A stretch of 39,650 nt of DNA from a virus. Below are positions 1-22,253 of the stretch, in pieces. The notes under the pieces are model-generated. The model did no database searches. It saw only the letters and a program-made list of their open reading frames with translations, and was not told where the DNA came from. The translations under genes were made by a program, and so were the position numbers. Numbering within the stretch: position 1 is the stretch's first letter; each line of letters begins with the position of its first letter. Location: positions 1 to 39,650 of IMG/VR virus record IMGVR_UViG_3300045988_050603; one strand, written 5' to 3'.

Positions 1-1
1 C

Positions 2-418
2 TTGGGCATCAATGCTGGCTGGGGCATCAATGCTGGCGAGGGCATCAATGCTGGCGAGGGCATCAATGCTGGCGAGGGCATCAATGCTGGCTTGGGCATC
101 AAGGCTGGCTTGGGCATCAATGCTGGCTGGGGCATCAATGCTGGCGAGGGCATCAATGCTGGCTGGGGCATCAATGCTGGCTGGGGCATCAAGGCTGGCT
201 GGGGCATCAATGCTGGCGAGGGCATCAATGCTGGCTGGGGCATCAATGCAAAAACTTTTATTGACTGCAAAAAGCGCATTTTTGCTGGTCTGTCCGTTTA
301 TCACACAAGCAAGAACTGTATCAAGTCCATCGAATGCGCAGAACTGAAGAACGGCGAAATTTGCTTTGGTAATTTGGTTATCGTGAAGCCGGAAACCGAA
401 AAGAGCGATAACGAATGA
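2..418 (+). CDS. C-terminal part of a hexapeptide-repeat (GINAGx)n beta-helix-like protein; the gene continues from 39407..39650
   Basis: At least 13 perfect 18-bp in-frame repeats, ggcatcaa(t/g)gctggc(gag/tgg/ttg), encoding G-I-N/K-A-G-E/W/L, followed by a unique C-terminal domain. The stop codon overlaps the ATG at 415. Confidence 0.6.
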   Translation: MGINAGWGINAGEGINAGEGINAGEGINAGLGIKAGLGINAGWGINAGEGINAGWGINAGWGIKAGWGINAGEGINAGWGINAKTFIDCKKRIFAGLSVYHTSKNCIKSIECAELKNGEICFGNLVIVKPETEKSDNE

Positions 419-783
419 GCAAATACCACAGCCGGAAGATCGCAAGGGATGGAATCACTTTTGATTCTGTCAAGGAATATAGAAGATGGTGCGAATTGTC
501 CCTGCTTGAAAGGGCAGGGGCAATTCAGAACCTGCAAAGGCAAGTCAAGTATGTGCTGATTCCAGCGCAAAGGGCTTTCACAAATGAAATTGATAAAAAA
601 GGAAATTTCAAGAAAGGAAAGCTTCTTGAAAGAGAATGTGCTTACATTGCCGATTTTGTCTATTTCGATTCGCAAACTGGCCAGATTACCGTGGAAGATA
701 CCAAGGGATTCAAGACCAAGGACTACATCATAAAACGAAAGTTGATGCTGTGGGTACACGGCATCCGCATTCAGGAGATATGA
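415..783 (+). CDS. DUF1064-family phage protein
   Basis: 'KYHSRKIARDGITFDSVKEYRRWCELSLLERAGAIQNL...' matches the DUF1064 pattern (xxGIxFDSKxExxRYxELxLLEKAGxI). ATGA overlap with the upstream gene. Confidence 0.55.
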   Translation: MSKYHSRKIARDGITFDSVKEYRRWCELSLLERAGAIQNLQRQVKYVLIPAQRAFTNEIDKKGNFKKGKLLERECAYIADFVYFDSQTGQITVEDTKGFKTKDYIIKRKLMLWVHGIRIQEI

Positions 784-1701: not shown

Positions 1702-1892
1702 AGAAGTGCGGCTTTAGCGGCGGAAAAGTTGAAATCACAGTTTTTGGGGTTCCTCTGGATCCTTGCCAGTATGAATTGATCGAGAAATACCGGAATGTGA
1801 CGGTGGAGATCCTGCGCTGCAAGAACTGCGGTCATGTGGAAATCTCATGGAGCCGGCAAGAAAACACGGAAGAAGGTGATCTGGATGGCTGA
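1698..1892 (+). CDS. Small 4-Cys (zinc-ribbon-like) protein
   Basis: TTG start overlapping the upstream stop. Cysteines at C4, C23, C41 and C44. Bridges the gap to the next gene. Confidence 0.3.
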   Translation: MKKCGFSGGKVEITVFGVPLDPCQYELIEKYRNVTVEILRCKNCGHVEISWSRQENTEEGDLDG

Positions 1893-2700
1893 TGTGAAGT
1901 GGATCAAGCTGGTCACAAATATCTTTGATAACCGCAAGATCAGAATGATTGAATCCATGCCTGAAGGTTACGCCATTATTGTGACATGGCTGAAGCTTCT
2001 TTGCCTTGCCGGAAATATCAATGATACAGGGATGGTCTATTTCACAAAGGAACTTCCCTATACTGACCAGATGCTTGCCACACAGTTCAATATTCCGCTA
2101 ACCACAGTGCAGCTTGCCCTGAAGACCTTTGAACAGTTTGGAATGATCGAAGTGGTTGATAACATCCTATGCATTTCAAATTGGGAGAAGTACCAAAATG
2201 TTGACAGGCTGACCGAAATCAGAGAATACAACAGACTGGCAAAGCAGAAATCAAGGGCAAAGCAAAAGGCTTTGGCTGCTGTCAATGACATGTCAAGGAC
2301 AAGTCAACCATGTCACGATACAGATATAGATAAAGAAGAAGATAAAGAAAAAGATAAGAAAAAGACTAAAGAACAGAAGAAAGAACCGAAGATCTTTTCT
2401 GATGATCCAGAACTTAACCAGGCAATCTTGTCCTTTATCGACTTCCGAAAGAGCATCAAAAAACCGATGACGGATCATGCTGTTGACCTTCTGATCAAGA
2501 AGCTGAATGAAATGTCACCTTCTATTGAAGATCAGATTGAAATAATCAATCAGTCCATCATGAATGGCTGGCAAGGGGTATTCCCTTTGAAGGATCAAGG
2601 GAGATCCACACAGTCTGTCAAACAGCCCTACCACAAACAAACCAAGGCAGAAGAACTTGATGACTTTTATGCTATGGCAAAGGAGTGGTCAGAAACATGA
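1885..2700 (+). CDS. Phage replisome organizer / DnaD-like replication initiator
   Basis: N-terminal 'MADVKWIKLVTNIFDNRKIRMIESMPEGYAIIVTWLKLLCLAGNINDTGMVYF' is typical of the phage_rep_org_N family. Followed by a charged KE-rich linker and a DnaD-like C-terminus. ATG 1885 overlaps the upstream stop. Confidence 0.65.
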   Translation: MADVKWIKLVTNIFDNRKIRMIESMPEGYAIIVTWLKLLCLAGNINDTGMVYFTKELPYTDQMLATQFNIPLTTVQLALKTFEQFGMIEVVDNILCISNWEKYQNVDRLTEIREYNRLAKQKSRAKQKALAAVNDMSRTSQPCHDTDIDKEEDKEKDKKKTKEQKKEPKIFSDDPELNQAILSFIDFRKSIKKPMTDHAVDLLIKKLNEMSPSIEDQIEIINQSIMNGWQGVFPLKDQGRSTQSVKQPYHKQTKAEELDDFYAMAKEWSET

Positions 2701-2888
2701 TTCAATGTTGCAGATACTGCCCGGATAGATCTGTTGGCTGCCATTCAACCTGCGAAAAGTACATATCAGAGAAAGCAGCCCATGACAAACTGAATGAAAT
2801 GATCCGGGATCAGAAAGCCCAGGATGATGCAATCACATTATCCATCATCAACAGATCAAAGAAAAAAGGCGGTAGATATCATGGATAA
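2697..2888 (+). CDS. Small Cys-rich hypothetical protein
   Basis: ATGA overlap at 2697. 'CCRYCPDRSVGCHSTCEKY'. AAGGAG upstream. Confidence 0.4.
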   Translation: MIQCCRYCPDRSVGCHSTCEKYISEKAAHDKLNEMIRDQKAQDDAITLSIINRSKKKGGRYHG

Positions 2889-3417
2889 AAAAGAATTCGG
2901 CCTGTTTGCTTCTGCCCTTCGCACCTATTATCCCAAGGAGCAGATCCTGCCGAACCAGCAAGCCATGGAACTTTGGTACAGAGAACTGCAAGACATTCCA
3001 TTCCCTGTTGCCGAAGCTGCCCTGCGCCAGTGGGTGGCCACAAATAAGTGGTCACCTTCCATCGCAGAGATCCGGGAAGTCGCTGCAACAGTCCAGCATG
3101 GCAGCGTGAAGGATTGGGGCGAAGCTTGGGAACAGGTGCTGATGGCTGTCAGAAAGTACGGAATTTACAACCAGGGAAAGGCCCTGGATAGCATGGATCC
3201 GATGACCAGGACAGCAGCAGAACGCACAGGGTTCCGCAATATTTGCCTGTCAGAGAACATTGCAACCGAAAGGGCAAACTTCCGTATGATCTATGAAAGC
3301 CTGTCTGCACAGGAAAAATCCAGGCAGCAGATCGCTTTGCCATTGCAGGAAGTGATCAATATGATCCAGGCAAACCAGGAAAGATTGTGTTTAGAAGGTG
3401 GAAATAGTGATGCATAA
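2881..3417 (+). CDS. Putative helicase loader (SPP1 G39P-like 'loader and inhibitor of G40P' family)
   Basis: 'LRTYYPKEQILPNQQAMELWYRELQDIPFPVAEAALRQWVATNKWSPSIAEIREVA' resembles the YP...W..L.D......A.......WxPSIAEI pattern. Sits immediately after the replisome organizer. Confidence 0.4.
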   Translation: MDKKEFGLFASALRTYYPKEQILPNQQAMELWYRELQDIPFPVAEAALRQWVATNKWSPSIAEIREVAATVQHGSVKDWGEAWEQVLMAVRKYGIYNQGKALDSMDPMTRTAAERTGFRNICLSENIATERANFRMIYESLSAQEKSRQQIALPLQEVINMIQANQERLCLEGGNSDA

Positions 3418-7165: not shown

Positions 7166-8638
7166 ATGCTTACTGCGACAGAAATAAAGAACTTTATCGA
7201 CAATGATGCAGCCAGCGACAAAAAGCGCTTTGCAAGAACCGGTCTTCGTTATTATGAAGCAGATCACGATATTAGAAACTATCGTGTGTTCTTCATCGAT
7301 GCGGATGGCAACATTCAGGAAGACACAACCAAAAGCAATATTAAGATCAGCCATCCATTCTTCACTGAACTGGTGGATCAGGAAGTGCAGTATATGCTTT
7401 CTGGCAAGGAAGGTTTTGTGAAATCGGACAATCCAGATCTTCAGGACTATCTGAACGAATACTTCAATGACAATGAAGATTTCATGGCTGAACTGTATGA
7501 AGTGATCACCGGCTGCATCTCCAAGGGCTTTGAATATGCCTATGCCTATAAGAATGCAGAGGGAAAGACGGCCTTCCAGTGCGCTGACAGCATGGGTGTG
7601 GTGGAAATCAGGGAGAAGGAAACCAATGACGGTTGTGCCTATGTGATCTATTGGTACATTGACCGCATTGGCAAGGATGGCAAGAAGATCAAGCGGATCC
7701 AAGTGTGGAATGATAAAGAAGTTACTTCCTTTATGCAAGAGGATGACGGCAGCATTATTCCTGATGAAAATGTGAAGCCAAATCCCAGGCCGCACATCAC
7801 ATACAAGAAGCCAGGCGATAACAACATCTACTATGACAATTTTGGCCTGATCCCTTTCTTCCGCCTGGATAACTGCAAGAAGCAGTTCAGCGGTCTGAAG
7901 CCCATCAAGGCCCTGATTGATGACTATGATCTGATGTCCTGCGGCCTGTCTAATAATATTCAGGACACCAATGAAGCGCTGTATGTGGTTAAAGGCTTCC
8001 AAGGTGACAATCTGGATGAATTGATGGTGAATATTAAGGCCAAGAAGCATATTGGCGTGGATGATGACGGCGGTGTGGAGATTCACACGGTTGATATTCC
8101 CTATCAGGCCCGGCAGACAAAGCTGGATCTGGATGAAAAGAACATCTTCCGCTTTGGTATGGGGGTGAACACTGAAGGTCTGAAGGACACCAGCGCAACC
8201 ACATCTATTGCCATCAAGTCTGCCTATTCCCTGCTGGATCTGAAGGTGAATAAGCTTGAAATTCGCCTGAAGCAATTCATGCGGAAGCTGTTGAAGGTTG
8301 TGCTGAAGGAAATCAATAACGAAAACAAAACCGATTTCCAGCAGAAGGATGTCTATTTTGATTTCCAGCGTGAGATCATCACTAATGCCCAGGAGAATGC
8401 ACAGATCGAACTGACCGATGCCCAGCGCAAGCAGACCGAGATCACAACCTTGCTGAACCTGGCCAACCATCTTGATGATGAAACGCTGATGCAGCTGATC
8501 TGTGAACAGCTTGATATCGATTACAACGATATCAAGGATAAGCTACCGCAGCAGGAAGAAGATCCGACAGCAGCAGCACAAGCTGCGCTTCAGAACATCC
8601 AGCCCGATGATGATGACGGTGGTGAATTGATTGAATAA
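7166..8638 (+). CDS. Portal protein (SPP1 Gp6-like)
   Basis: 490 aa, directly after the terminase large subunit gene. Acidic C-terminus. AGGGGGA RBS. Confidence 0.7.
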   Translation: MLTATEIKNFIDNDAASDKKRFARTGLRYYEADHDIRNYRVFFIDADGNIQEDTTKSNIKISHPFFTELVDQEVQYMLSGKEGFVKSDNPDLQDYLNEYFNDNEDFMAELYEVITGCISKGFEYAYAYKNAEGKTAFQCADSMGVVEIREKETNDGCAYVIYWYIDRIGKDGKKIKRIQVWNDKEVTSFMQEDDGSIIPDENVKPNPRPHITYKKPGDNNIYYDNFGLIPFFRLDNCKKQFSGLKPIKALIDDYDLMSCGLSNNIQDTNEALYVVKGFQGDNLDELMVNIKAKKHIGVDDDGGVEIHTVDIPYQARQTKLDLDEKNIFRFGMGVNTEGLKDTSATTSIAIKSAYSLLDLKVNKLEIRLKQFMRKLLKVVLKEINNENKTDFQQKDVYFDFQREIITNAQENAQIELTDAQRKQTEITTLLNLANHLDDETLMQLICEQLDIDYNDIKDKLPQQEEDPTAAAQAALQNIQPDDDDGGELIE

Positions 8639-18063: not shown

Positions 18064-18345
18064 ATGCTATTCCAGCGCTATGCAAATCCGATGATCCTGC
18101 TGGATGGCATGATAAGGGGCCGCAGGTTCAACGCTTTTGTCAATGAATTTGTGACCATCACCAATGAAGAACTTGAAAACAAAACACTATGGGAATACTG
18201 GCTGCACAAGAATTTTGATCAAACCTATAGTGAATTCTTGGAGCAGACAAAGAAACCAAAAACTGAAAAAGTTCCTTCACGCCTTGAACTTGAAATCACA
18301 GTCAAGGAATCTGCGGAGATGTTAAACGGCTTTTGTCTTTCTTAA
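18064..18345 (+). CDS. Tail assembly chaperone T-extension (probably expressed only as a G-T frameshift product)
   Basis: In the -1 frame relative to G. The frame is open back to 17992. Confidence 0.45.
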   Translation: MLFQRYANPMILLDGMIRGRRFNAFVNEFVTITNEELENKTLWEYWLHKNFDQTYSEFLEQTKKPKTEKVPSRLELEITVKESAEMLNGFCLS

Positions 18346-18362
18346 AGAAAGAAGGGAAAAGC

Positions 18363-20444
18363 GTGGAATTGTTCAAGCTACTTGGAACAATTGCAATCGA
18401 TAACAGCGAAGCAAACAAAGCCTTGAATGAAACGGCAAAGAATGCAGGATCATCAAGCAAGGAAGTCGAATCAGCGGTAAACAAGGTGGGAACCGTTGCG
18501 CTTGGGCTTGGGAAAGCCGTTGTTACTGCCGGCGCTGTCATTGGCGGCGCTTGGATTGCGGCCATCGAAGGATCCAGGGAATACAGAACGGAAATGGGCA
18601 AGCTGGACACGGCTTTTGTTACCAATGGCCATTCTTCAGAAGCTGCAAAGCGTACCTATTCGGATCTGAATTCCGTTCTGGGTGATAGCGGCCAAGCCGT
18701 TGAGGCAGCAAACCATCTTGCGCTGCTGACCGATAACGAAAAGGATTTAGGCACCTGGACAGACATCTGCACTGGTGTTTATGCCACTTTTGGCGCTTCC
18801 CTACCCATTGAGGGCTTGACCGAAGCGGCCAATGAAACGGCAAAGGTCGGTGAAGTCACAGGCCCTTTGGCCGATGCGTTGAACTGGGCCGGAATCAGTG
18901 AAGATGAATTCAATGATAAGCTGGCGAAGTGTTCCGGCGAACAGGAGCGCCAGAAGCTGATCATGGACACACTGAACGGCACCTACTCCAAAGCAGCCGA
19001 TCAGTACAAAAAGACCAACAAAGATGTCATTGCCGCCGAAAAAGCGCAGGAAAAGCTGACAGATGCCTTTGCTGAATTCGGCAGAATCGGTGAACCGATC
19101 CTGACACTGATCAAGTCGAAGGTGGCCGATATGGTTGCCGCTGCTATACCACACCTTGAGAACTTTATCAACAAGATCAAGGATGCAGCCAGGTGGATTA
19201 AGGACAATGAAGAAAAAGTGAAGCTGTGGTCAGGTGTTATTGCGATAGCTATTGCAACGGTTGGCGGCTTTGTCCTTGTCCTTGCATGGGCTGGCATCAT
19301 GCAGAAGGCAGCGGCTGCGCTGAAGATCGTCACCCTTGCCGTGAAAGCATTGAACATAGCAATGAGGGCCAACATCATTGGCCTTGTTGTAACGGCTATT
19401 TTGGGCCTTGTCGCTGCGTTTATCTATCTATGGAAAAACTGTGACAGCTTCAGAAACTTCTGGATCGGTCTGTGGAAGATCATCCAGTCTGCCGCAAAAG
19501 CCGCATGGAAGGCCATTTCAAAGGCATGGGAAGGTGTCGGCAAGTGGTTCAAAAGTAAATTTGAACAGGTGCAGAAGGCCGGAAAAAGCGCAATGGACAG
19601 TGTGAAAAAGTGGTTCAGCGATGCTTTGAAGGCAATCAAGAAAGCCTGGTCTGCTGTTGTTGGCTTCTTCAAGGGGATTTGGAAAGGAATACAGTCTGCT
19701 TTTTCTGCCACAGGATCCTGGTTCAGTAAAATCTTCAGATCCGCCTGGAACGGTGTGAAATCCGTCTGGAACGGTGCAAGATCTTTCTTTTCCGGAATAT
19801 GGTCTGGGATCCGTGGGATCTTCGGTTCTGTCGGATCGTGGTTCCGTGGGAAATTCCAGGCCGCATGGTCTTCCATCAGGTCTGTATTTTCCGGCTGGGG
19901 ATCCTTCTTCGGCGGTCTTTGGACAAAGATCAAAAGCAAATTTTCCAGCATTGGATCTGCCCTTGGCAAAGCAATGGGTGATTCGGTGAAGTCCGGACTG
20001 AATAAAGTCCTTTCTACAATTGAAAAAACGATCAACAAGGGAATCGGCCTGATCAACAAAGCCATCAACCTTGCCAATAAGCTGCCCGGCATCAATGTGG
20101 GCAATGTGCCAACTTTGTCGCTGCCCAGGCTTGCAAAAGGCGGTGTGCTGAAAAAGGGGCAAGTGGGCGTTCTGGAAGGCAGCGGCGCTGAAGCCGTGGT
20201 TCCTTTGGAAAATAATCATGGATGGCTTTCCAAGGTTGCTGCTGACCTGAACAAAATGCGGGGATCCGCTGTGGATGTGCAGCAGATCCTGGCCATGCTG
20301 AACAGGATCATTGATCTGCTGGGCGGTGTGGCTAATATGCGTGTATGCCTGGAAAGCGGTGTCCTGGTTGGAGAATTGACACCAGCTATTGACCGCCAAC
20401 TATCGGATCGATGGAGCCATTCCATGAGGGGCAACACAAGATGA
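18363..20444 (+). CDS. Tape measure protein, paralog 1
   Basis: GTG 18363 after a GAAGGGAAAAG RBS. W/F-rich periodic repeats 'KAAWKAISKAWEGVGKWF...'. C-terminal 'LSLPRLAKGGVLKKGQVGVLEGSGAEAVVPLENNHGWLSKVAADLN'. Confidence 0.7.
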   Translation: MELFKLLGTIAIDNSEANKALNETAKNAGSSSKEVESAVNKVGTVALGLGKAVVTAGAVIGGAWIAAIEGSREYRTEMGKLDTAFVTNGHSSEAAKRTYSDLNSVLGDSGQAVEAANHLALLTDNEKDLGTWTDICTGVYATFGASLPIEGLTEAANETAKVGEVTGPLADALNWAGISEDEFNDKLAKCSGEQERQKLIMDTLNGTYSKAADQYKKTNKDVIAAEKAQEKLTDAFAEFGRIGEPILTLIKSKVADMVAAAIPHLENFINKIKDAARWIKDNEEKVKLWSGVIAIAIATVGGFVLVLAWAGIMQKAAAALKIVTLAVKALNIAMRANIIGLVVTAILGLVAAFIYLWKNCDSFRNFWIGLWKIIQSAAKAAWKAISKAWEGVGKWFKSKFEQVQKAGKSAMDSVKKWFSDALKAIKKAWSAVVGFFKGIWKGIQSAFSATGSWFSKIFRSAWNGVKSVWNGARSFFSGIWSGIRGIFGSVGSWFRGKFQAAWSSIRSVFSGWGSFFGGLWTKIKSKFSSIGSALGKAMGDSVKSGLNKVLSTIEKTINKGIGLINKAINLANKLPGINVGNVPTLSLPRLAKGGVLKKGQVGVLEGSGAEAVVPLENNHGWLSKVAADLNKMRGSAVDVQQILAMLNRIIDLLGGVANMRVCLESGVLVGELTPAIDRQLSDRWSHSMRGNTR

Positions 20445-20501: not shown

Positions 20502-22253
20502 TTGGAACTATTCAAACTGTTAGGAACAATAGCTATCGAAAATGGTGAAGCAAACAACGCCATTGATAACACAACAGACAGGGTGAAAAAATCCGAAAGC
20601 AAAATAGTTAATTCAATCAAAAAAATAGGTTCAGCTATCGTTGCCTATTTCGCAATTGATAAGATAACTGCCTTCGGAAAAGAGGTTGTCAATGTCGCTG
20701 CCGAAGTTTCCGCTGAAGCATCTGCCTTTGAACAAATCATGGGCGATTATGCCGAAGTTGCCACTGAAAAGGTTGGCAAAATCGCAGAAGCAACAGGCAT
20801 GGTGGATAGCCGTCTTACGCCGTACATGACCAGTATGACGGCAAAGTTCAAGGGCCTTGGTTACGATATAGAGGAAGCCACAGATTTAGCATCCACAGGT
20901 TTGACCATTGCAGCCGATGCAGCTGCCTTCTGGGATAAATCCCTTGATGAATCAATGGGCCACTTAAACAGCTTTGTAAATGGTTCTTATGAGGGCGGCG
21001 AAGCAATCGGTTTATTCGCCAATGAAACCACATTAGCTGCATGGTCTGCTAAAAATCTTAAACTAAAATGGGATGATTTGACTGAAAAGGAAAAGCAATT
21101 TGCAAGGTTGCAATTTGCAAAAGCAATGCAGGAAGCTTCTGGCGCAACCGGACAGGCTGCAAAGGAATCTGACCAGTATGCAAATGTTCAGGCAAATCTA
21201 AACGAAAAATGGCGGCAATTCAAGGCGCAAATAGGCGAACCATTACTTCAAAACATTGTGCTTCCGGCAATGGAAGTGCTATCTGATGTGATTGATAAGT
21301 TAAGTACAGGCTTCAAAGCACTAACCGCTTGGGTTGATAAGAATCAAACAGCGCTGGAACTGGTCGGAATTGCGGCCGGAATTCTTACAGCCGCCATAAT
21401 TGCATATAACATTGCACAAAATGCTTCTGCCATTGCAACATCCATTGCGACAGTAGCAACAACCGCCTTCGGCGCTGCCATGAACTTTGTTACATCTCCA
21501 ATTTCTCTTGTGGTTGCAGCGATTGGCGCTGTTATTGCAATAATCGTTTTATGTGTTAAACATTGGGATCAGATCAAAGAAACCGTGGTAAAAGTGGCGA
21601 ACACCATCAGTAAAAAAGTGTCTGAAATGGTCGCAAGTGTGAAACAGTGGTTCACTAATATGTGGAATTCGCTGACCACTATTGTGGGCAACATCGTGAC
21701 GGGGCTGACAACCGCCTTCACAAATGTAAAGAACTTCATTATTGGCGTGTTTACTACGGTATCGACATTCATTTCTGACATCTGGAACGGCATATGTGAC
21801 ACTATCAAAGGTGTTATCAATAACATCCTTGGCGGTGTGGAATCCTTTGTCAATGGGATCATCAGTGCAATTAACTGGCTAATTGATGGCCTAAATACAC
21901 TGGTTGAAGCTGCCGGTGAATTACTTGGGCTTGATTGGAGTATTACACGCATTGAATCTGTTTCCATTCCTCGGCTGGAAAAGGGCGGTGTCTTGGAGCG
22001 TGGCCAGGTTGGTCTGTTGGAAGGCACAGGCGCAGAAGCTGTTGTTCCGCTTGACCAGAATAGGAAGTGGATCAGCGCTGTCGCTGAAGATATGAATGGA
22101 TCCATGGGCGGAAATAAGCAGGTGCAGGAATTGAAAGAAGCCTTTAATGAATTCCGCAATGACCTGCCGGATATGCTTATTGATGCATTCACGGCTATGA
22201 AATTCGATGTCAACAATCGTGAATTTGCAAGACTTGTAAAGGCGGTGAATTGA
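20502..22253 (+). CDS. Tape measure protein, paralog 2
   Basis: TTG start after AAAGGCGGTG. N-terminus 'MELFKLLGTIAIENGEANNA' and C-terminus 'VSIPRLEKGGVLERGQVGLLEGTGAEAVVPLDQNRKWISAVAEDMN' are both homologous to paralog 1. A/I/T-rich hydrophobic core. Confidence 0.65.
   Translation: MELFKLLGTIAIENGEANNAIDNTTDRVKKSESKIVNSIKKIGSAIVAYFAIDKITAFGKEVVNVAAEVSAEASAFEQIMGDYAEVATEKVGKIAEATGMVDSRLTPYMTSMTAKFKGLGYDIEEATDLASTGLTIAADAAAFWDKSLDESMGHLNSFVNGSYEGGEAIGLFANETTLAAWSAKNLKLKWDDLTEKEKQFARLQFAKAMQEASGATGQAAKESDQYANVQANLNEKWRQFKAQIGEPLLQNIVLPAMEVLSDVIDKLSTGFKALTAWVDKNQTALELVGIAAGILTAAIIAYNIAQNASAIATSIATVATTAFGAAMNFVTSPISLVVAAIGAVIAIIVLCVKHWDQIKETVVKVANTISKKVSEMVASVKQWFTNMWNSLTTIVGNIVTGLTTAFTNVKNFIIGVFTTVSTFISDIWNGICDTIKGVINNILGGVESFVNGIISAINWLIDGLNTLVEAAGELLGLDWSITRIESVSIPRLEKGGVLERGQVGLLEGTGAEAVVPLDQNRKWISAVAEDMNGSMGGNKQVQELKEAFNEFRNDLPDMLIDAFTAMKFDVNNREFARLVKAVN

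Follow-up and report, generated by a model that had tools for sequence, protein, structure and literature searches.

The DNA analysed here, referred to throughout as the window, spans 39,650 nucleotides (nt; positions 1 to 39,650 of IMG/VR virus record IMGVR_UViG_3300045988_050603) and is a complete, circularly permuted genome of a temperate siphophage, encoding terminase, portal, minor head protein, major head protein, tape-measure and tail proteins and a serine integrase. Its artificial ends fall inside a gene that carries an array of 18-bp tandem repeats, hereafter called the repeat gene. This gene is part of an early operon in which Pfam and PHROGs matches identify genes for a Gp157/Gam-like protein, Sak4, a phrog_18107 protein and, beyond the repeat gene, a DUF1064 protein, a dUTPase and a replisome organiser. 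With the two ends of the window joined, the repeat gene is made up of the following parts.

39394..39401 (+): Shine-Dalgarno-like site GGAAAGGA, 5 nt before the start codon (sequence reading)
39407..39568 (+): start codon and conserved N-terminal domain, 54 codons (translation; near-invariant columns in 86 homologues and 27 short homologues)
39569..39650 (+): first four full units and the beginning of a fifth (E, kL, kL, W, ...) (Tandem Repeats Finder, unit reading)
1..249 (+): remaining array, with 13 full units at 5..238 and a degenerate unit, GINAKT, from 239; 1..32 is the terminal overlap
250..418 (+): conserved C-terminal domain with the motif KRIFAG...C.K.I.C.EL..GE..(F/Y)G.L, and stop codon TGA at 416..418

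Tandem Repeats Finder detected an 18-bp array at 4..249 (13.7 copies, 92% matches, score 394) and a second one at 39569..39650 (4.6 copies), and all 15 matches of a two-unit pattern search lay within the array, with 0 expected in shuffles. Each full unit consists of GGCATCAA(T/G)GCTGGC followed by GAG, TGG or TTG and encodes GI(N/K)AG(E/W/L). The near-perfect, in-frame hexapeptide array reported in a preliminary description, which had been made from the letters of the window alone, was in this way confirmed by repeat finding, by reading of the units and by the comparison with shuffles. The stretches and the sequence of the units had likewise been read correctly in that description, but its count of 13 plus 4 units (5..238 and 39569..39640) includes one unit twice, since the window begins and ends with the same 32 nt (1..32 = 39619..39650); the minimal array holds 16 perfect units and one degenerate unit. 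Joining 39407..39650 to 33..418 yields an uninterrupted open reading frame (ORF) of 630 nt from the ATG at 39407 to the stop at 416..418, which has 209 codons in this minimal closure. The resulting protein of 209 residues is composed of an N-terminal domain of 54 residues, the 16 DNA-perfect units, the degenerate unit and a C-terminal domain of about 53 residues. Because the array contains further copies of the terminal 32-mer (at 109..140) and of the last 55 nt of the window (at 86..140), closure and unit count are to be read as a minimum estimate: 16 units is the smallest array compatible with the contig and no measured number.

That the array lies in a real early gene, as the preliminary description had assumed, is supported by the Shine-Dalgarno-like site, by the overlap of the stop codon with the ATG of the following DUF1064 gene (ATGA, 415..418), by the codon pattern of the flanks and by a conservation that exceeds that of the neighbouring genes. 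For these comparisons, homologous loci and homologous proteins that were set against the window are designated L0xx and P0xxx, respectively. Compared with the orthologue in L001, the flank codons show 32 synonymous and 16 non-synonymous differences, and the repeat gene is 81-87% identical at the nucleotide level, versus about 70% for its neighbours. Among 27 short homologues, many columns of the N- and C-terminal domains are invariant and all length gaps are whole hexads; in the C-terminal domain, residues R163-G167, C177, C183, G189, G194 and L196 are invariant or almost so. Related phages keep the gene, its flanks and its frame, a check that the preliminary description had proposed. Judged by these sequence comparisons, the repeat gene looks functional and its end domains appear to be under purifying selection.

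The repeat protein is a member of a large uncharacterised family of phages and prophages in which conserved ends flank 1 to 36 GI(E/K/N)AGx hexapeptides. A word-indexed search retrieved 611 homologues of 117-360 amino acids, and when all of 1.84 billion cluster representatives were searched with a profile, 593 matched at E<=1e-3 and 245 at E<=1e-10; many of these profile matches are only 50-110 amino acids long and cover just one end of the profile. The hosts of these phages and prophages are gut Clostridia (Lawsonibacter, Ructibacterium, Ruminococcus, Oscillospiraceae, Eubacteriales). None of these homologues, the NCBI members included, carries a name given by its source. The protein of the window itself has no Pfam, NCBIfam or PADLOC match, and its PHROG match is spurious and driven by the repeats. 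No homologue was found among PDB sequences, where single-protein and profile searches gave compositional matches or none, and tblastn against 50,697 deposited phage genomes gave no match even at E<=1. A fold search of BFVD returned two viral UniProt homologues, both uncharacterised, and a literature search on FapA, DUF342, bactofilin or solenoid proteins of phages and prophages and on the repeat peptides returned nothing relevant.

The family is modular in its architecture. At least three kinds of N-terminal domain, Pfam YdhT_N among them, precede the repeats and the C-terminal domain; a Lar-type restriction-alleviation zinc ribbon is fused in 5 of 86 members, Xre-type helix-turn-helix (HTH) domains are fused to some members, and others are, by reading of their sequence, apparently fused to an RpoA-alphaCTD-like domain. 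The HTH fusions include P0061 (L013, 5001..6083) and P0160, in which solenoid arrays are joined to Xre-type domains; in L013 the fusion gene sits among other HTH genes and a serine recombinase, which suggests that repressor-like proteins can include the solenoid as one of their domains. In L046 two family paralogues stand in tandem (1856..2563 and 2740..3345), the upstream one having another hexad (S-Q-E/K-V-G-G/W) with the C-terminal motif unchanged.

The number of units differs widely between homologues, from 1 to 36 overall and from 3 to 36 in IMG/VR arrays. In L003, which is 94.8% identical to the window over 2.4 kb upstream, the array has 6 units, as it has in the more distant L001 (mean identity about 75% over aligned segments); IMG/VR contig _061028, with flanks that are 95% and 89% identical, has at least 18 units in a different order. 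The expectation that the array would vary in length between phage lineages was therefore borne out, in whole units from 1 to 36 and, among phages with flanks 89-95% identical, with 6, at least 16 and at least 18 units. Copy number differs in close relatives with frame and flanks kept, as in an in-frame, length-variable tandem repeat. Inside each lineage the five scaffold codons are DNA-identical across units, while other lineages use other synonymous codons: GGC ATC AAT GCT GGC in the window, GGC ATT AAA GCC GGG in L011 and GGC ATC AAG GCC GGC in L012. This synonymous recoding between lineages implies that the peptide is kept by selection and that the DNA identity within an array stems from recent duplication or homogenisation. 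The window holds five unit types, three of which are DNA-identical to units of L001 or L003, which fits the reshuffling of a few ancestral units. The array gains and loses whole units, presumably by replication slippage or unequal recombination, and close relatives would thus make rods of differing length while selection on the end domains continues. In the comparison of the window with L001 (6001..6450), synonymous changes affect 2 of 30 scaffold codons as compared with 32 of 114 flank codons (Fisher p = 0.015); codon preference, a constraint at the DNA level or recombination between phages are possible reasons for this excess conservation.

The array is also a frequent contig breakpoint, as no more than 17 nt separate 16 of 33 IMG/VR arrays from a contig end and 3 of 7 loci from metagenome-assembled genomes (MAGs) are likewise cut in the array (L004-L006). 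In three contigs, _061028 (L020/L028), _036596 (L029/L036) and _102953 (L033/L039), the halves of the gene are found at opposite ends, as in the window. Evidently, short-read assemblers break in the array, and for this reason the 16-unit count and the 32-nt 'terminal repeat' of the window are unreliable and copy numbers in databases are biased low. Long arrays are nevertheless real: complete arrays of 12-36 units, including ones of 17, 20, 23, 27 and 36, lie well inside IMG/VR contigs. The warning of the preliminary description that the repeat region might be an assembly artefact was in consequence justified as regards the copy number of the window, which is uncertain, and unfounded as regards the array itself.

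To get a view of the fold, an AlphaFold2 model was built with an alignment of 86 sequences (mean predicted local distance difference test (pLDDT) 81.5, predicted template modelling (pTM) score 0.72). It predicts a three-sided beta-solenoid with three hexads (18 residues) per turn. Residues 1-130 have a pLDDT of 85-97, with a four-residue strand (G-I-x-A) each 6 residues and G-x as turn; the N-terminal domain (pLDDT 92-97), with a short strand about every 6 residues, is modelled as the first windings of the same solenoid. Foldseek gave no match against the PDB at E<=1e-3, and superposition on left-handed beta-helix (LbetaH) proteins gave template modelling (TM) scores of only 0.11-0.19 with a root-mean-square deviation (rmsd) of 11-12 Å. 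The model and these comparisons indicate that the solenoid would be right-handed, like that of bactofilin and FapA, and not a left-handed beta-helix, so that of the two folds named in the preliminary description the bactofilin-like beta-solenoid was retained by structure prediction and the left-handed one was not. Ile-2 and Ala-4 would fill the core, as the alternation within the strands suggests, residue 3 would lie on the faces, and Gly-5, residue 6 and Gly-1 would form the corners. With three hexads per turn the sixth residue would occupy all three corners and would not line one edge, as had been supposed; three extra units would add one more turn, about 4.8 Å in known beta-helices.

The units were also tallied by residue position. 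Over all 1,641 units, position 1 is Gly in 75%, position 2 Ile in 97%, position 3 Glu in 39% and Lys in 35%, position 4 Ala in 91%, position 5 Gly in 81%, and position 6 Trp in 23%, Glu in 15%, Cys in 12% and Asp in 8%. In the 1,063 strict GIxAGx units, position 3 is Glu in 45% and Lys in 38%, and position 6 is Trp in 29%, Glu in 18%, Cys in 12%, Asp in 11%, Ser in 8% and Leu in 7%. The strong conservation of the core argues against a disordered linker, and position 6, which had been described as variable, is restricted family-wide to mainly Trp, Glu, Cys and Asp. Two weak signals are compatible with a turn made of an odd number of units. The position-3 charges of 116 arrays show negative correlation between units at lags 1 and 3 and positive correlation at lag 2, and in the window array Glu stands over Trp or Leu in 10 of 13 lag-3 pairs, a value reached by 3% of shuffles. 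In two other loci (L030, 184..669; L025, 3145..3558) the corners are mostly cysteine, in runs of GI(E/K)AGC; with three units per turn these would form long Cys ladders along the rod, possibly serving metal binding or redox reactions.

Searches for remote homology, which the preliminary description had recommended, gave sub-threshold FapA and fringe bactofilin signals and no qualifying match. FapA/DUF342 (PF03961) is the only recurrent Pfam signal, in 18 of 86 members (best E 2.5e-4); its scores are 15-20 bits versus a gathering score of 31, e.g. 19.7, the best, for P0059 and 14.9 for P0015. The protein of the window has no PF03961 match, and neither the FapA N-terminal domain nor any other Pfam domain was found in its 209 residues. 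A profile of divergent members reaches proteins with precomputed PF03961 matches, one of them named 'DUF342 family' by its source, and at its fringe two PF04519 bactofilin proteins at E 6e-8 and 3e-6. The Pfam bactofilin model itself (PF04519) matched 0 of 86 members at E<=0.1. By hhalign, 29 columns were aligned with a single bactofilin protein (89% probability), and nothing usable was obtained with a single FapA protein. As these sequence links are sub-threshold, we describe the family as bactofilin/FapA-like in predicted fold and file it in neither family. The Hexapep model (PF00132) has a weak match in 1 of 86 members (E 0.004), and the hexapeptide motif [LIV]-[GAED]-x2-[STAV]-x is absent, as taking Ile as position i puts the variable Trp/Glu/Leu/Cys at i+4.

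The genes next to the repeat gene in the window are the following.

38113..38724 (+): gene of a Sak4-like single-stranded DNA-annealing ATPase (phrog_2872, 5.5e-69)
38738..39346 (+): upstream gene, phrog_18107, function not known (PHROGs match)
415..783 (+): downstream DUF1064 gene (PF06356 at 7e-20; phrog_190 at 2.5e-35)

The position of the repeat gene after a Sak4 gene had been recognised in the preliminary description and is supported by the phrog_2872 match; the upstream gene had there been called DUF669, for which Pfam gives no match, its sole match being phrog_18107. The order Gp157 - Sak4 - phrog_18107 - [repeat gene] - DUF1064 is common to the window, L001 and L003, and PHROGs groups DUF1064 with Holliday-junction resolvases. 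Of 16 other loci, 7 have RusA as their downstream neighbour and the rest DUF1064, YqaJ, ERF or DUF669, and in most loci the overlap with the downstream ORF is 4 or 11 nt. L011, of another phage type, shows the gene followed by one unannotated ORF and YqaJ-RecT, with RusA slightly further on. Upstream neighbours comprise orphan DNA methylases (5 of 17 loci) and an AAA_24/PD-(D/E)XK protein. A repeat protein had been judged unexpected in a replication/recombination module; on the contrary, the family recurs there, its commonest place being immediately before a Holliday-junction resolvase gene. RusA and DUF1064 are unrelated resolvase families, and their occurrence in the same downstream slot is mild evidence for a functional link and not for shared ancestry of a gene block.

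Elsewhere in the window, the replisome-organiser gene (1834..2700) contains at 2280..2392 (+) direct repeats TGTCAA(T/G)GACA with an 11-bp period, followed by an A-rich GATAAAGAA repeat block. A phage replication origin may plausibly lie here, and as candidate iterons these repeats are more conventional than the 18-bp array. A Type II hammerhead ribozyme (Rfam RF02276) was matched over its full length at 36862..36928 (+), in the early region between small ORFs (50.7 bits versus a gathering score of 37, E 1e-7). The C-terminal residues ~516-778 of the minor head/head-morphogenesis protein (8631..10973, +) match ADP-ribosyltransferase families (phrog_16625 Bxa at 2.6e-34; phrog_3895). Tape-measure families match two successive ORFs, 18333..20444 and 20502..22253 (+); the two may be parts or copies of one tape measure, or they may be separated by a frameshift or sequencing error.

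Taking fold and gene context together, the repeat protein probably has, and we say so with some reserve, a non-enzymatic part in the recombination or replication of phage DNA, be it as scaffold, as adaptor or as a rod that associates with itself. This reading is founded on the gene being transcribed with, and usually overlapping, a recombination gene, mostly that of a Holliday-junction resolvase. The conserved ends would bind partners, and the solenoid would be a length-tolerant spacer between them, at work in recombination or late replication; the fusions to HTH, Lar zinc-ribbon and RpoA-alphaCTD-like domains fit a module that is used beside DNA-binding parts. A DNA mimic of the Ocr/ArdA type was considered and rejected on account of the near-neutral, only mildly acidic charge (isoelectric point (pI) 6.0 for the window protein; family median 5.3). 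A bolder version, in which the protein is an accessory factor of phage Holliday-junction resolvases or recombinases, a right-handed rod whose length is tuned, or kept heterogeneous within a population, by repeat slippage, is in our view a long shot; if true, the gene would be a contingency locus that acts on protein length, and not on on/off expression, in a phage recombination module.

Several points weigh against the scaffold and the solenoid on which it is built. No experimental or annotation-based function was found across the family, the adjacency to resolvase genes may reflect only a conserved modular gene order, and a precise spacer would hardly be expected to tolerate anything from 1 to 36 units. 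The predicted handedness is that of one AlphaFold2 model, read through rmsd and TM patterns; the C-terminal 70 residues of that model are ill-defined (pLDDT 47-74), and a model of a short family member reached a pLDDT of 51. The period-2 alternation, and with it both lag signals, could be a by-product of the duplication of two-unit blocks. Finally, about 60% of the corner residues of the window array are Trp or Leu, a composition uncommon among soluble monomers and one that may hint at oligomerisation or at another kind of target.

Other explanations concern the nature of the array itself. That it is an assembly artefact, absent from the phage DNA, could be suspected from the contig ends that fall within it, from the terminal 32 nt and 55 nt that occur again inside it and from the many IMG/VR and MAG arrays at contig ends. 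The same gene is found, however, in hundreds of independent assemblies, complete arrays of 12-36 units lie inside contigs, the flanking domains are in frame and conserved, and the doubt touches only copy number and unit order of the window, so that this explanation can hardly be credited. A diversity-generating retroelement, or a similar mutator directed at the variable codon, could also come to mind, since only one base of codon 3 and the first two bases of codon 6 vary and all other positions, synonymous sites included, are identical. This candidate was rejected and is effectively refuted: no unit copy exists outside the array that could act as template repeat, no reverse transcriptase is present among the annotated large ORFs (the small ORFs were only partly scanned), and there are only five unit types, three of them common to L001 or L003. 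The repeats might instead act mainly as DNA, as iterons, origin or recombination hot spot, with their coding role secondary, which would agree with their location in a replication/recombination module and with the excess conservation of the scaffold codons over the flanks. We regard this as quite improbable, given that other lineages encode the same peptide with different synonymous codons, that arrays homologous to this one are also carried by HTH-fusion genes of the lysogeny module, that copy number ranges from 1 to 36, and that the repeats in the replisome-organiser gene offer a more conventional origin.

As to fold and role, a trimeric left-handed beta-helix of the hexapeptide-transferase type is brought to mind by the period of six with Ile, Gly and Ala and by the single weak Hexapep match; it is very unlikely in view of the poor superposition on LbetaH proteins, the hexad order Ile-x-Ala-Gly in place of small-x-Ile-Gly, the lack of an acyltransferase C-terminal part and of catalytic residues, and the lack of Pfam and NCBIfam matches of the window protein. 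A self-polymerising cytoskeletal filament of the bactofilin/FapA type, which would organise phage DNA replication or disturb cell division, draws on the predicted right-handed triangular solenoid with 18 residues per turn, on the sub-threshold FapA matches, on the PF03961 and fringe PF04519 proteins reached by the divergent-member profile and on the hydrophobic corner residues. It is nonetheless doubtful, as the bactofilin model matches no member and FapA scores stay below the gathering threshold, hhalign yielded a short bactofilin alignment and nothing for FapA, E-values from repeat-rich profiles may be inflated, and the conserved terminal domains may cap the rod and block end-to-end growth. 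Somewhat easier to defend, and still unlikely, is an anti-defence or host-takeover protein, an inhibitor or decoy that evolves fast in an arms race by repeat turnover and changes of exposed corners. A repeat gene in an early operon, an array turnover much faster than that of the flanks, the Lar-type zinc ribbons and the orphan methylases upstream are compatible with such a role; there is, on the other hand, no PADLOC match and no link to a known defence or anti-defence family, the proteins are only mildly acidic, unlike Ocr/ArdA mimics, position 6 is not freely diversified, and the Lar fusions may be the mere joining of neighbouring genes.

If the predicted fold holds, the repeat protein would be a natural beta-solenoid of almost ideal hexads in which the gain and loss of units is visible, and as such a possible model for solenoid folding, capping and design. 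The family is moreover an abundant, unnamed companion of recombination genes in phages of human-gut Clostridia. The array also stands as a warning for completeness calls of viral contigs, as a terminal overlap made by it can mimic the direct terminal repeats that are used to call such contigs circular or complete.

Among known systems, bactofilin, a right-handed, three-sided beta-solenoid with about 18 residues per turn, comes closest in the architecture that is predicted here, including a small aliphatic core; it differs in that its fixed domain has about 6 windings of degenerate repeats, whereas the present proteins have 1-36 near-perfect hexads between distinct conserved end domains. FapA/DUF342 proteins are cellular, several hundred residues long and carry FapA_N, in contrast to a phage early protein of 209 residues with a family-specific N-terminal domain. 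The left-handed beta-helix of LpxA, GlmU and gamma-carbonic anhydrase has, according to the model, the opposite handedness, and it has another residue order; no enzyme-associated domain accompanies the repeats here. Pentapeptide-repeat proteins such as Qnr and MfpA are right-handed solenoid rods that act non-enzymatically on DNA enzymes; they share the right-handed solenoid and the very short, near-identical repeats, but with period 5, four sides and strongly acidic DNA mimicry, as opposed to period 6, three sides and a pI of 6.0, they offer a functional analogy only. With variable-number tandem-repeat (VNTR) proteins the family has in common a DNA-perfect unit whose length is a multiple of 3 and whose copy number changes without frameshift; VNTR arrays, however, lie mostly in surface adhesins, as stalk or linker, while here they belong to a cytoplasmic phage early protein in which the repeats would be the folded core. 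Set against these systems, the repeat gene stands for a fairly abundant phage family, as yet uncharacterised, whose structural kind is known and whose repeats are unusually ideal and dynamic.

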